Part shown: piece by piece, positions 4,135-56,970 of the stretch
Position numbering within the stretch: position 1 is the stretch's first letter
How the letters are laid out: each line of letters opens with the position of its first letter
Origin: Octopus vulgaris
Taxonomy: Eukaryota
Reading direction: 5' to 3'
NCBI GenBank assembly: GCA_951406725.2
Contig: OX597815.1
Coordinates: 181,660,001-181,724,000 of the forward strand
Length of the DNA: 64,000 nt
The notes under the pieces: generated by a model
The model's database searches: none
What the model was told of the DNA's origin: nothing
What the model saw: only the letters and a program-made list of their open reading frames with translations
Position numbers and translations under genes: made by a program

Positions 4135-4696
4135 ATATAATGATAAGAGTAAATAATTTCTATAAAGGCTTTTAAAAAAAACCCCAATTATTTACTGGTA
4201 GAATTCGGTATGTAAATATAGCCAATTACCGGCAGGAACTTCTGTAAAGTTCAGTATATATATTGTATATAAGAAAAAGGGACAGGCAAAACAGGTTGCT
4301 TGACCGCATACCGAAAAAATAGAAATAGCAATCAAGAATGCTTATTTCTATCAAAGTTGGACTCCGGGCATGACAGACCCTGTAATTCACATATGCAAAA
4401 CAGAAGGAATAGATAACGAATACGAAGTCTGGCGGTTATCTGTGAACATCATGTTTCTGGATTATAAACATATTGAATATATATTCCATATATTTTTGAT
4501 ATATATTTCATATATATTGCATATATAACATGATGTTCACAGATAACCGCCAGACTTCGTATTCGTTATCTATTCCTTCTGTTTTGCATATGTGAATTAC
4601 AGGGTCTGTCATGCCCGGAGTCCAACTTTGATAGAAATAAGCATTCTTGACTGCTATTTCTATTTTCGGTATGCGGTCAAGCAACCTGTTTTCTTA
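4131..4696. mobile_element. PLE-like fragment with about 165-bp inverted arms (4288-4455 / 4527-4692)
   Basis: Near-perfect reverse complement of the two arms; both flanks are (TA)n. Confidence 0.6.
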
Positions 4697-11409: not shown

Positions 11410-11615
11410 ATTACTATTTGTAATTCTCACGAGAGATATTCAGCAACAGTACTTTAGAGTAAAGATTGTTTGCCAACATAACATGGCAGTCCTGGTTTAG
11501 GACGAATGTTGCTGTAATTTAGTCAGCTGGAAACGGTGTCTCCTGGGGCTAAATTACAGCAACATTCATCCTAAACCAGGACGGCCATGTTATGTTGGCA
11601 AATAATCTTTACTCC
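11410..11615. mobile_element. Short inverted-repeat insertion (PLE-like)
   Basis: Arms 11457-11522 / 11549-11614; flanked by duplicated AGGATCAATTTA(TA)TTTGAAA. Confidence 0.6.
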
Positions 11616-11745: not shown

Positions 11746-11747
<2 letters not shown>

Positions 11748-11797
<50 letters not shown>

Positions 11798-12093
11798 ACA
11801 CTGCCTGGAATCGAACTCAGAATCTTGGGGTTAGTAGCCTGCGCTCTTAACCACTACACCATATGCATAGTAAAAAGCCACTAACCCCAAGATTCCGAAT
11901 TCGATTCCAGGCAGTGACATGAATAATAATGATAATAATAATAAAATCGAAAAATACCTTAGGAATGAGAACCCAGGTTCGAAATTTCCCCAAGACATCT
12001 GATGAAGGTTAGAAGGTATATCAGCTGAAACCTTGTGTTAATAACAAACAAGAAGGGGACAAATATCCGTCAAATGTAAATAATGTAAATAAT
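11748..12093. mobile_element. tRNA-(AAT)n-hammerhead PLE family, head-to-head inverted pair
   Basis: Minus-strand tRNA head at about 11794-11867, then plus copy with CTGATGA..GAAAC. Confidence 0.8.
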
Positions 12094-19287: not shown

Positions 19288-19325
<38 letters not shown>

Positions 19326-19337
19326 AATATTTAACTT

Positions 19338-19491
19338 GCATTATTTACATTTGACGGATATTTGTCCTTATCTTGTTTGTTGTTAACACAGCGTTTCACC
19401 TGATATACCCTCTAGCCTTCATCAGGTGTCTTGGGGAAATTTTGAACTTGGGTTCTCATTCCTAAGGTATTTTTCGATGTTATTATTATTA

Positions 19492-19551
<60 letters not shown>

Positions 19552-19744
19552 TCACTGCCTGGAATCGAACTCTAATTCTTCGGGTTAGTCGCCCGTGCTC
19601 TTAACTACTACACCATATGCCGTGGGCTGGAGGGTATATCAGCCAAAATGTTGTGTTAACAACAAACAAAATCAGGACAAATATCCGTCAAATGTAAATA
19701 ATGTAAATAATGTACATAATTCCTCATCTCTGAAATATAGAACT
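19338..19744. mobile_element. tRNA-(AAT)n-hammerhead PLE family: full minus copy plus inverted plus fragment
   Basis: 14-bp direct repeat GGAATATTTAACTT on both flanks (19324-19337, 19745-19758). Confidence 0.85.
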
Positions 19745-19937
19745 GGAATATTTAACTTAGAAGTTTAAATACCTGACAATATCAAACCTATATTGAAATT
19801 TACTCTGGTGGAATTACAAGCACTAATTACGTCACCTGTAAAACATTGTGATAGACTTTATGGTATACTAAGAGAAGCTGTAATGCCATAACCAGTCTGA
19901 ACTGCTCAGATCTGAACTGAAATGATACCATCGAAAT

Positions 19938-21075: not shown

Positions 21076-21150
21076 AAAATGTGACCATGTGTGTACCGTT
21101 GGCGATTTTTTTCCTCCATCTTCCTTTCTCTGGATCTTTCCTTTTCCTAT

Positions 21151-21185
21151 GTTTCTGACGAAGAGCTCCGCTCGAAACGTAAAAC
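21151..21185 (+). ncRNA. Minimal type I hammerhead ribozyme (PLE-type)
   Basis: GTTT-CTGACGA-A-GAGC(TCC)GCTC-GAAAC-GTA-AAAC: intact core, stems I and II pair, palindromic ACGT stem III. Confidence 0.85.
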
Positions 21186-21304
21186 CCTCCTTCTTCCCTT
21201 CCTTCCTAAGTGTCCAATAATACTATATTTGTTCCACGTCCTCGCGTTGTTGTGTTTTCTCTTTGTGTTTTCATGTTTGGATTAACTATATATATATATA
21301 TAAC

Positions 21305-26640: not shown

Positions 26641-27005
26641 TAAGCATAAGCGTCGTGCAGACTAAACGTTGTGTTAACTACAAACAAGATGAGGGCAAAT
26701 ATCCGCCAAATGTAAATAATGAACTGGTACTTATTTTATCCACCCTGGAAGGATTAAAGACAAAGTCAACCATGACAGCATTTGAACTCAGAACATAAAG
26801 ACAAAAAAATGCCGCTAAGCATTTCGCCTGGCATTGTAATGATTCTGCCAGCTTTGCACCTTACGTTTCACAAATATTGATTCGCAGAATCATGATGCTC
26901 ACTTAGGCAAATGTATTTTGCACATTATAAAATTTTGTGTTTTGAATTGATATCAAAAACCATGCTAATAAATCTAGTGTTTTCTGTTTGAATCTTCATA
27001 ATTAT

Positions 27006-37803: not shown

Positions 37804-37926
37804 TTTACATTATTTACATTTGATGGATATTTGTCCTCAACGTTTCGGCTAATATACCCTCCAGCCTTCATCGGGTGTCTTGGGGAAATTTCGAACCTGG
37901 GTTCTCGTTCCTAAGGTATATTTTGA

Positions 37927-37966
<40 letters not shown>

Positions 37967-38566
37967 TTATGTTTGACTTTAGCTTTACATTTGTACAAGT
38001 TGGCTCCAAGTCTCACCCAGAGACCTCAAGAGACAACAAGTTGGAATTCATGTTGGTGTTATGCCTAGGGTGTCATATATTTGGTTTTGTACTTAGTGTT
38101 GTTCTAGAGAATGTTTAAGAAAACATAAGAAAATTATGTTGCTTTTAAAACTTGAGATTACTTAGAAAGTATTTTGTGTAGGATATGAGCAGTTCCCATG
38201 AACACTATCTTTTGAATTTCTGCCATTTTGAGGTTTCCTGGTATCTGAGCTAGGTAGTAATCAGCTGCTTTTGCTATCATTCCCAGGGCACCTATGAAAA
38301 CAGCCATTGTTTTAGTCTTCAGGTTCCACATTTTGTTAATTTCTATTTCAAGATCTTTATGCTTGCTCAGTTTTTGGTAGGTTTGACAGATACGTTTATA
38401 TTGATTGGGACAGTCATATCAATGAGGAGGCACGATTTTGTTGTTGTCTCCAAAAAATTGTTATTATTATTATTATTATTATTAAGGTCACTGCCTGGAA
38501 TCGAACTCAGAATCTTGGGGTTAGTATCCCGTACTCTTAGCTACTACACCATAAGCCCGTGGGAAT
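37804..38566 (-). mobile_element. tRNA-(AAT)n-hammerhead copy split in its AAT tract by an R4/Dong-type LINE
   Basis: Hammerhead half at 37804-37960, tRNA half at 38461-38566. Confidence 0.8.
38158..38450 (-). pseudogene. R4/Dong-type RLE endonuclease C-terminus (3' UTR to about 37965)
   Basis: CLLIDMTVP..KLSKHKDLEIEINKMWNLKTKT..GALGMI..IQK..GTAHILHKILSK*, one frameshift. Confidence 0.85.
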
Positions 38567-38889
38567 TTTTTGTTTAGGATCTTCAGGTGAAGAGTAAAGT
38601 TAGGGGTCTAGATTAGAGAGGGTTAAAGAGCACATGATGCATTAGGAATTACTCAACTGCTTCTACTTATTTCCACATCTAAGAAGAGTTCAGTTGGTTA
38701 AACAGCCAAACGTTTTTCATTGTTACTCCTGGAGAATCCACCACCAGACAAACAGTAATAATAGTAATTGAACATGTATGATATCATAATTTATTGAAAT
38801 CTTATAAAATAAGGGAAGATTCATCATGAGGAAGTTTCAACAAATACATGTAAATATGACAGAACAATATTTGTTGAAAACAGATCGTT

Positions 38890-47840: not shown

Positions 47841-47900
47841 TACCACGATAAATAATCTATTAGTACAGTCACTGAAAAAGTATTGACAATTACAAAAGAT

Positions 47901-48646
47901 ACAGTTCTATATTTAAGAGATGAGGAATTATTTTCATTATTTACATTATTTACATTTGACAGATATTTCTCCTCATCTTGTTTGTTTTTTAACACAATGT
48001 TTTGGCTGATATACCCTCCAACATTCATCAGGTGTCTTGGGGAAATTTCTAACCTGGGTTCTCATAGATTTTGATGGAGTTTCTCTATATGTCCCCCATT
48101 GAAGTCTAATATCGGCTCCGTACTGATTAGATAATAAAGTTCTATATTTAAGAGATGAGGAATTATGTACAATATTTACATTTGACAGATATTTGAGAAC
48201 GCAGGTTCGAAATTTCGTCAAGGCACCTGATGAAGGCTGGAAGGTGTATCAGCCGAAACGTGTTAACAACAAACAAGATGAGGACAAATATCTGTCAAAT
48301 GTAAATAACAACAAAAGATGTTGAACAATTCTTTATATTTACTTGATTAAAAAGATAGTTTTGTGTACAAATTATATTTGCCATAATATATTGCTTATTG
48401 TATAGAAGTTAAAATCCTAGAGGTCAACATGGCAATGACCAAAATGTTAATAATACAATTTCATCTACATTATTTACTTTTGACGGATATTTGTCCTCAT
48501 CTTGTTTGTTGCTAACACAACGTTTCAGTTGATATACCCCCCAGCTTTAATTAGGTGTCTTGGGGAAATTTTGAACCTGGGTTCTCATTCCTAAGGTATT
48601 TTTCAATGTTGTTGTTGTTGTTGTTGTTGCTGCTTTTGCTGCTGCT

Positions 48647-51468: not shown

Positions 51469-51645
51469 GCATATGGCTCAGTGGTCAGAGCAATAGGTTC
51501 ATGATGATGCGGTAGTGAGTTCAATTCTCGGACTGGGCTGTGTGTTGTGTTCTTGAACAAGGCACTTTATTTCATGCCCACGGCCATAGTGGTTAAGAGC
51601 GCAGGCTACTAAGCCCAAGATTCTGAGTTCGATTCCAGGCAGTGA

Positions 51646-51687
<42 letters not shown>

Positions 51688-52085
51688 CAACATCAAAAAA
51701 TACCTTAGGAATGTGAAGACAGGTTCGAAATTTCTGCAAGACATCTGATGAAGGCTGGAGGGTATATCAACCAAAACATTGTGTTAACAACAAACAAGAT
51801 GAGGACAAATATCCATCAAATGTAAATAATGTAAATAATTCCTCATCTCTTAAATATAAAACTACTTTATTTCATGTTGCTCCAGTTTACTCAGCTGTAG
51901 AAATGAGTTGAGACGTCACTGGTGCCAAGCTGTATCAACTTTTGCTTTACTCTTGGATAACATCTGTAGCATGGAGAACGGAGGCTTGTCTATCATAAGC
52001 AACCTTGCCTGATCTTGTGCCTTGGAGGATAACTTTTTAGGTACAATTTCATGGTCATTCATGACTGAAAGTGGTCTTTACCCTT
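51469..52085 (+). mobile_element. tRNA SINE (same family as 56645-56970) hosting a nested insert
   Basis: Removing 51577-51876 restores colinearity with 56645-56970. Confidence 0.8.
51577..51863 (+). mobile_element. Stand-alone tRNA-(AAT)n-hammerhead unit
   Basis: 13-bp TSD ACTTTATTTCATG (51564-51576, 51864-51876); starts at the tRNA-like head. Confidence 0.9.
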
Positions 52086-54179: not shown

Positions 54180-54228
<49 letters not shown>

Positions 54229-54271
54229 TATTTACATTTGACGGATATTTGTCCTCATCTTGTTTGTTGTT

Positions 54272-54317
54272 AACACAATGTTTCGGCTGATATACCCTCC
54301 AGCCTTCATCAGGTGTC
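54272..54317 (-). ncRNA. Minimal type I hammerhead ribozyme of the PLE terminal repeat
   Basis: GACAC-CTGATGA-A-GGCTG(GAGGGTATAT)CAGCC-GAAAC-ATT-GTGTT; other copies have GAAACGTT (palindromic stem III). Confidence 0.8.
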
Positions 54318-54403
54318 TTGGGGAAATTTCGAAACTGGGTTCTCATTCCTAAGGTATTTTTCGATGTTAATCGTATTATTATTACTATTATTATTACCAT
54401 TCA

Positions 54404-54476
54404 GGTCACTGCTTGGAATCAAACTTGGAATCTTGGGGTTAGTAGCCCATGCTCTTAACCACTATAACATATGCCC
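54404..54476 (-). promoter_or_regulatory. 73-nt tRNA-derived cassette (Pol III A and B boxes) inside the PLE
   Basis: Family consensus GGGCATATGG.GTAGTGGTTAAGAGC..GGCTACTAACC..GAGTTCGATTCCAGGCAGTGACC; imperfect acceptor stem, so not a functional tRNA. Confidence 0.8.
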
Positions 54477-54505
54477 GGGGGCAATTATATAGTGAATTTT
54501 AGGGT

Positions 54506-54788
54506 TTATAAATCTAATATTTTCCTATCCTTCCTTAATACTGATTCCCATATGCTACTCATATCTGCACGAGGTCTGCTTAGAAAGTTGTCCTAGCATA
54601 TGTGCCGCTTCTGTTAGTTTTCATATTTCCCAGTAGTGTTCACTGTCTATTATTTTAACTTCATCCCACAGCGGAAAGTGGTCTCCATTTTCCCATACAT
54701 TATCAGCTAGACCTGATTTATCAATATCTCCAAGTGTCACAGCTTTGCGATGTTCGTCTACCCTTATTTTGAATGGGCGGCATGTTTC
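54506..54788 (-). pseudogene. Penelope-like GIY-YIG endonuclease C-terminal remnant
   Basis: ETCRPFKIRVDEHRKAV..DKSGLADNVW..WDEVKIIDSEHYWEI*KLTEAAHM / LSRPRADMSSIWESVL..DL*. Confidence 0.9.
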
Positions 54789-54975
54789 ATTCCACAATTT
54801 CCCACCTTAGGAATGAGAACCCAGGATCAAAATTTCCCCAAGACACGTGATGAAGGCTGGAGGGTATATCAGCTGAAACATTGTGTTAACAACAAACAAG
54901 ATGAGGACAAATATCCGTCAAACATAATTAATGTACATAATTCGTCATCTCTTAAATATAAAACTGTATTATATA

Positions 54976-56644: not shown

Positions 56645-56970
56645 CACATGGCTCAGTGGTTAGAGCATCAAGCTTACGATCGTGAGGTTATGAGTTTGAT
56701 TCCCCGACCGGGCTGTGTGTTGTGTTCTTGAACAAGACACTTTATTTCCTATTGTTCCATTTCACTCATCTGTAGAACTGAATTACAACATTACTGCTGC
56801 CAAACTGTATCGGCCGTTGCCTTTCCCTTGGATAACATCAGTGGTTTGGAGAGGGAAGGCTGGTATGCATGGGCAACTGGTGGCCTTCTAGGAACAACCT
56901 TGTCCAGACTTGTGTCTCGGAGGATAACTAATGTGCAATCCCTTGGTCATTCATGACCGAAGGGGGTCTC
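56645..56970 (+). mobile_element. tRNA SINE
   Basis: A-box TGGCTCAGTGG, B-box-like GTTTGATTCC, GTGTTCTTGAACAAGACACTTT core-like segment. Confidence 0.8.

Follow-up and report, generated by a model that had tools for sequence, protein, structure and literature searches.

To understand how a short repeat that joins a tRNA-like head to a hammerhead motif comes to lie on its own inside another repeat, we examined the 287-bp unit at positions 51577-51863 (plus strand, as are all its parts) of the 64-kb stretch of octopus DNA referred to here as the window. Identical 13-mers stand on both sides of the unit (target-site duplications at 51564-51576 and 51864-51876, the element's 5′ hairpin already beginning with the last G of the left one), and the insertion splits a host tRNA-SINE (51469-51990, plus strand) of which an uninterrupted relative lies at 56645-56864. 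The initial annotation, which described a 287-bp unit inside another SINE with a 13-bp duplication, was therefore correct on this point. The unit opens with a tRNA-like head carrying a 6-nt leader (51577-51649, identified by motif inspection), in which the B box is intact (51627-51636) and a short deletion has left only a damaged A box remnant (51585-51592). An (AAT)n/(AAC)n tract (51650-51691) leads from the head to a start codon, and the remainder (51711-51863) corresponds to the first ~50 codons of a Penelope ORF, aligned with residues 18-59 of the homolog P0004. Within this coding region lies a putative minimal type I hammerhead (51740-51785), recognised by comparison with the features given in the available part of PMC4209133; its predicted cut falls between 51780 and 51781, and its core is broken in this copy by AAAA instead of GAAA at 51773. 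The last ~30 nt (51834-51863) form a 'tail' bounded by two alternative 3′ ends, which by analogy with PMC11167929 (seen in part) would be the start sites of reverse transcription. A second copy of the family (L273) is inserted beside the same AT-rich motif of the focal host SINE family, which hints at a preferred target.

Genome searches recovered near-full-length copies of ~2.6-2.8 kb in which head, (AAT)n, ATG, hammerhead, tail, the rest of an ORF for reverse transcriptase (RT) and GIY-YIG endonuclease, stop codon, 24 nt and again a head follow in this order. The start ATG lies inside the unit, upstream of the hammerhead, and hammerhead and tail together make up the first ~50 codons, in frame with the ORF. 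At two loci (L182 and L183) a partial repeat passes straight into the ORF, and in the window the unit is joined to the end of the GIY-YIG frame (54220-54788). Since the unit joins the ORF end, supplies the ORF start and places its head 24 nt past the stop codon, it is, as judged from sequence, the pseudo-LTR of a decayed Penelope/Poseidon-type element. The proposal that the unit moves alone as a SINE is not supported here, as the unit is the terminal repeat of an autonomous element, whose first codons make up the 3′ 160 nt of the unit. Consistent with this assignment are a single ORF with RT and C-terminal GIY-YIG, pseudo-LTRs in partial tandem, inverted 5′ partial copies, a 30-40-bp tail at one end and, by inspection, a candidate minimal type I hammerhead within the pseudo-LTR. 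P0004, an intact homolog of 847 residues that comes from another source and to which L181-L183 align over residues 18-844, contains Pfam RVT_1, and GIY-YIG motifs were read by eye; a 299-aa fragment gave no Pfam match. The CX2-5CxxC linker before the endonuclease is absent from the translations, read by eye against the available text of PMC8557442, and the Poseidon-type placement is a judgement by eye on this missing Cys linker.

The family looks inactive now. Among the 132 ORF matches listed only the query and one partial match lack an internal stop, no intact full ORF was seen among copies that carry stops or frame breaks, and copies differ by ~4% from the family majority sequence. It is nevertheless abundant: 21 of 151 random 10-kb stretches contain it, which extrapolates to ~39,000 loci (24,000-60,000), and of those 21 insertions six have an arm starting at −8 to +2 (numbered from +1, where the tRNA-like fold begins) and two have ORF 3′ sequence. 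The window holds about eight family insertions, against 21 in the 1.51 Mb of random stretches, and dense family clusters occur on contig 1 near 109-113 Mb among the matches listed. Other Penelope-like sequences were also encountered. A younger Penelope family without a tRNA head (L315-L318, copies about 97% identical) carries three CCAAT-like boxes together with a TATA-like run in its 3′ region (motifs by eye), a polymerase II-type contrast, and ~30 RT-like matches (G000, e.g. C14:41720446-41721675) in stop-free open frames 600-1,200 residues long represent a young, possibly active family.

The tRNA-like head and the hammerhead were both identified by motif inspection, from the A and B boxes and from the hammerhead features described in the accessible portion of PMC4209133, respectively. 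ARAGORN called no tRNA in the window, with only noise under relaxed settings, and Rfam called neither a tRNA nor a hammerhead in the window or in one unit. By motif, the A and B boxes lie 46 nt apart, an A box is found in 49 of 58 head-started units and a B box in 38 of 58; the tRNA-type head recognised in the initial annotation stands on these boxes, with negative ARAGORN and Rfam results. The best outside matches of the head are the heads of local SINEs, in register but weak (best E 0.005); no near-identical parent SINE was present among the matches listed from 1.57 Mb, a 65-nt head query returned 0 loci, and the acceptor stem pairs poorly. The candidate hammerhead shows, on inspection, a core, an extra base ahead of helix II and a palindromic helix III; each unit has one such minimal motif, and an intact core is seen in 52 of 119. 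The hammerhead-tail part carries deletions or cuts more often in ORF-linked (15 of 28) than in head-started units (11 of 58), in samples that were selected differently (L031-L060, L161-L189). A second, different minimal-hammerhead-like motif lies at 21150-21230 of the window (plus strand) and also at L078, L221 and L235 of the random sample, and is probably a repeat of another Penelope family.

Copying by the Penelope machinery, as the initial annotation had envisaged, is borne out by the structure of the insertions. An inverted arm is present in 45 of 70, the 3′ ends fall into two groups ~30 nt apart, and 27 of 32 arm pairs have a long 3′ end in one arm and a short one in the other (Fisher P 1.3e-4). 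Target duplications of 10-17 bp were found in 23 of 59, and run-on of the 3′ end into ORF sequence was clear in one of 72 tail ends. Inverted 5′ partial copies are typical of Penelope insertions (PMC8557442, in the text available), and for the anole element PAc the available text of PMC11167929 reports two internal priming sites that bound the tail, with extension of both strands in vitro, an ORF that begins in the hammerhead, and insertion independent of cleavage.

Three other copies in the window had been said to stop near the 5′ edge of the tRNA segment, and their arms do end at +3 (11866), −6 (19627) and about −10 (38567). These copies are mostly not free-standing: two form one half each of an inverted, two-armed insertion, and a LINE fragment splits the unit in the third. 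The insertion at 19324-19758, whose annotated 14-bp duplication is exact (19324-19337 and 19745-19758), combines a head-started unit with a short 3′ end on the minus strand (19627-19338) and an inverted partial with a long 3′ end on the plus strand (19625-19744). That at 11746-12093, for which no duplication was found, pairs an inverted arm that has no hammerhead (11746-11866, head and (AAT)n on the minus strand from +3) with a plus-strand partner unit whose start lies within the head (11877-12093). The third is a single head-started unit on the minus strand (37804-38567) interrupted in its (AAT)n, the pieces at 38457-38567 and 37804-37966 being separated by ~490 bp of minus-strand sequence (37967-38456), a 3′ fragment of a putative Dong/R4-type LINE with a restriction-like endonuclease end. 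An ORF-linked, 5′-truncated copy at 54220-54968 has the GIY-YIG end (54788-54510), the 24-nt linker and the unit down to 54220 on the minus strand, together with an inverted partial arm on the plus strand (54804-54968). An internally deleted tandem with an inverted arm occupies 47900-48308, where the tail continues ~70 nt into the ORF start and is followed by a second hammerhead-tail piece. A hammerhead-tail piece without a head (48463-48628, minus strand) and a short 3′ fragment of the unit (26658-26724, plus strand) were also found, and no duplication of at least 10 bp was detected at four other insertions in the window. Long inverted repeats flanking microsatellites are present at 4288-4692 and 11457-11614.

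The clustering of ends at the tRNA edge, beyond what random truncation would give, extends to the whole genome. Exact counts with one 19-nt anchor (+30 to +48) fall from 5,491 for the anchor alone to 3,631 with the 8-mer at +16 and 2,083 with that at +2, drop to 384 at −14 and are then flat (370 at −39). These counts are given as raw values because a correction for mutation through 20 ORF-linked copies proved too noisy (the +2 8-mer occurs in 6 of the 20, and its corrected count would exceed the anchor total). Plotting 5′ ends, as had been suggested, reveals the peak directly. A 33-nt head pattern has 1,141 matches, and of the first 70, which lie on contig 1 throughout and include two arms of a single insertion, 41 arms end within −8 to +4. 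This rises to 48 when seven arms called at −12 to −17, which read into an inverted arm or a fold-back, are re-assigned by eye to −7; of the remainder, nine end at +6 to +13 and 13 extend into the ORF. About four in five of the arms that reach the head end there. Upstream of the head, copies are lost at 0.7% per base, which gives an expectation of ~8% in the −8 to +4 interval, and even against a generous expectation of 20% the raw 41 of 70 has a P of 2e-15. The modal end is at −7/−6, with an edge smeared from −8 to +13 and a second cluster (9/70) at +1. No pile of 5′ ends was seen at the hammerhead cut site.

Because most head-bearing copies begin at the head, the element's RNA likely starts there. 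We accordingly favour, with a probability of about 0.55, a model in which the captured head is where the element's own RNA begins, and in which the short copies result from reverse transcription that is primed in the first repeat. A tandem master (repeat-ORF-repeat) transcribed from its upstream head would hold the priming sites twice, a type of template to which the deleted tandem at 47900-48308 testifies. Priming in the downstream repeat would give ORF-linked, 5′-truncated copies, and priming in the upstream repeat would reach the 5′ end of the RNA after ~260-290 nt and so produce SINE-like short copies. Priming of the two target strands at different sites, one apiece, would account for inverted arms whose 3′ ends are unequal. 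The template would be uncut RNA, since the copies read across the predicted hammerhead cut.

A Pol III start is the best candidate explanation for an RNA that begins at the head, on the strength of the A and B boxes, the position of the ends, the likeness to SINE heads and a deficit of TTTT. The modal 5′ end lies 13-14 nt ahead of the A box, which is the typical distance from a Pol III start to its A box. The initial annotation had held that a peak marking only the terminal-repeat boundary, with no Pol III transcript, would speak against its proposal; the peak does mark that boundary, and a Pol III start would nonetheless account for it best. As a weaker part of the model, the polymerase would read the whole ORF without meeting a TTTT terminator. 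There is no TTTT in the 2,550-nt majority sequence, where 2.55 are expected by synonymous shuffling (P 0.048, marginal), 4.4 by base shuffling (P 0.009) and 1.8 by an order-2 Markov model. In 45 copy segments, which are not independent, 17 runs occur in 38,754 nt (0.44 per kb; 74 expected by shuffling), compared with 29 runs in 8,201 nt (3.5 per kb; 16 expected) in eight copies of two tRNA-less Penelope families, where sites are shared. As the contrast is between a single family and two that belong to another clade type, the deficit is a hint of Pol III read-through.

RNA-seq reads from three runs (~6% of each, possibly from another species) have equal depth on both strands, and 73-83% of them continue into unrelated sequence, as expected for read-through of embedded copies. 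Neither at the head nor at the hammerhead do read starts or ends form a peak, and head depth does not exceed that of the ORF end; the mapping under-maps the short head and the first reference carried a hammerhead deletion, so these depths cannot rank head against ORF. Against translation of a Pol III product stand the difficulty of translating an uncapped RNA and the position of the ATG upstream of the hammerhead cut. Ribozyme-driven, cap-independent translation has been reported in viruses in the available text of PMC13725137, but in the octopus element the predicted cut lies downstream of the ATG. The fullest version of the favoured reading, in which an autonomous, protein-coding Penelope captured a tRNA-SINE head that served the entire 2.7-kb unit as Pol III promoter, purged TTTT from its ORF and shed thousands of ~290-nt SINE-like copies by internal priming, is put forward tentatively, at rather less than even odds.

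The same pile-up could arise without an RNA start at the head. A longer polymerase II read-through RNA could be copied up to the hairpin TGCCC-AC-GGGCA just 5′ of the tRNA-like fold, where the new DNA would fold back or the two arms anneal, leaving the head as a passenger in a 3′ UTR. The modal end (−7/−6) coincides with the base of this 5-bp hairpin and fold-back letters occur in 12 of 20 arms in which it is intact, so a structural stop fits these ends too. Moreover, head-to-head fusions occur exactly at the hairpin with its loop in both orientations, and an inverted partner is present for most head-ending arms, whereas 10-11 of 13 ORF-reaching arms have no visible one, a difference that is partly an effect of flank length. 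However, 25 copies show no visible inverted partner, and 11 of the 22 of them at risk also end at the head. The hammerhead region, moreover, contains an 8-bp perfect palindrome (position 89) that attracts hardly any ends: none of 45 inverted-arm ends falls within 85-93 and only one of 21 random insertions ends there, with the caveat that this palindrome is AT-rich and weaker than the head hairpin. A structural stop also leaves the intact spacing of the A and B boxes and the missing TTTT unexplained, and we consider it unlikely, at around one chance in five in our estimation.

Less probable again is an RNA that ends at the head without Pol III, through an internal polymerase II promoter or through a tRNA-processing nuclease that cuts a longer RNA. 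Penelope promoters do sit in the pseudo-LTR, from which they drive the next copy (PMC2377424 and PMC6765202, in the parts available). A nuclease finds some support in the second end cluster. RNase P would be expected to cut at +1 of a tRNA-like fold, exactly where this cluster lies, but the larger cluster is 6-7 nt further upstream, several of the +1 ends are loop-flipped fusions rather than true ends, and the poor pairing of the acceptor stem is unfavourable for such processing.

We then return to whether the short units form a lineage of their own, as would be the case if solo units were transcribed by Pol III from their own source genes and copied in trans by the Penelope protein, be it as a free SINE or as a retrozyme. 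Solo units with duplications do exist, outnumber ORF-linked copies by ~4:1, and each carries a promoter-like head and a priming region, so that low-level re-copying is possible in principle. We compared 58 head-started with 28 ORF-linked units out of 128, leaving out 42 others, in samples that were selected differently. No site distinguishes the two sets after correction (smallest P 0.004 at ~200 sites), divergence is 4.1% and 3.7%, respectively (P 0.43), and the labels are unclustered on the tree (19 changes against 21.4 when shuffled, P 0.12); neither the separate subfamily phylogeny that a free-moving SINE should leave nor a solo-only clade was seen between them. Three linked variants mark a second source. 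Its hammerhead marker appeared enriched in solo units of the sample (15/56 against 1/24), but the difference vanished in whole-genome counts, where the marker is as frequent in ORF-linked (67/264, 25.4%) as in all head-bearing copies (337/1,303, 25.9%). Given the equal age and equal marker frequency, no separate SINE lineage is seen, within the limit that a sample of 58 would miss many tiny source genes, and short and ORF-linked copies share source elements. The retrozyme label fares no better: in 70 loci we found no tandem hammerheads in the same direction, at least two of which characterise non-LTR retrozymes, direct repeats of unit parts occur in ~4 (L244, L260, L264 and L299, by eye) and never exceed dimers, and the single minimal hammerhead of each unit often has a broken core. 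A free SINE or retrozyme is therefore improbable in our view, slightly ahead of RNA ends made without Pol III and behind a structural stop.

The octopus family lies close to known Penelope/Poseidon elements and particularly to PAc (PMC11167929 and PMC8557442, in the text available), with which it shares RT and C-terminal GIY-YIG without the CX2-5CxxC linker, pseudo-LTRs, inverted 5′ partials, a ~30-nt tail between two ends, a hammerhead over the ORF start and an apparently uncut RNA template. Unlike the elements described in the available portions of these papers, the octopus pseudo-LTR opens with a tRNA-SINE-type A/B head and (AAT)n, at which the 5′ ends are piled. As in Penelope of Drosophila virilis, a pseudo-LTR promoter would drive the downstream copy; however, that promoter, the only one mapped for a Penelope according to the available text, resembles TATA-less LINE promoters (Inr/DPE) and comes with an intron (PMC2377424), whereas the octopus candidate belongs to the Pol III type with A and B boxes. 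Animal non-LTR retrozymes are likewise short hammerhead units akin to Penelope pseudo-LTRs, and monomers have been noted (PMC7229834; bioRxiv 10.64898/2026.07.22.740005; both in part), but they form tandem arrays with at least two hammerheads in the same direction and circular RNA, in contrast to octopus units that are single or head-to-head and have a minimal, coding hammerhead and a tRNA head; in the part of PMC7229834 available, 'tRNA' is mentioned only for ligases and processing. The schistosome Sm-alpha/Sj-alpha repeats also combine a Pol III-type promoter with a hammerhead in a short repeat, yet in the available text of the review PMC6765202 they are non-coding and tandem, with active canonical hammerheads and single copies that cannot propagate, whereas in octopus the unit supplies both the coding start and the terminal repeat of an element that is autonomous. 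With tRNA-derived SINEs (PMC4824008, in part) it shares the A/B-box head found by motif, full-length 5′ ends and target duplications. It differs from them in showing no non-autonomous lineage of its own, in a 3′ part taken from its partner's 5′ coding region, here Penelope ORF codons rather than the tail of a partner LINE, in an internal simple repeat and in two-armed insertions. No description of a tRNA-headed autonomous Penelope was found in the literature searched, including the available parts of PMC13282606, PMC4824008 and 10.1101/596502, although a Repbase or Dfam consensus may exist.

The octopus genome bears on how Penelope elements are transcribed and on why they leave tandem and inverted copies. 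Its thousands of copies act as a natural primer-extension map, which resolves a pair of 3′ ends together with one sharp 5′ boundary at the tRNA-like head; this lends support to internal twin priming in vivo and points to a candidate RNA start site. Terminal repeats of this type may be labelled as SINEs in annotation. If Pol III does read the whole ORF, the element would present the unusual case of a Pol III unit that codes for protein, in which a SINE and its partner are joined in one molecule. This would offer a route by which SINE-like and retrozyme-like repeats arise from the end of a Penelope element, and a direct one to tRNA-bearing non-autonomous Penelope derivatives.
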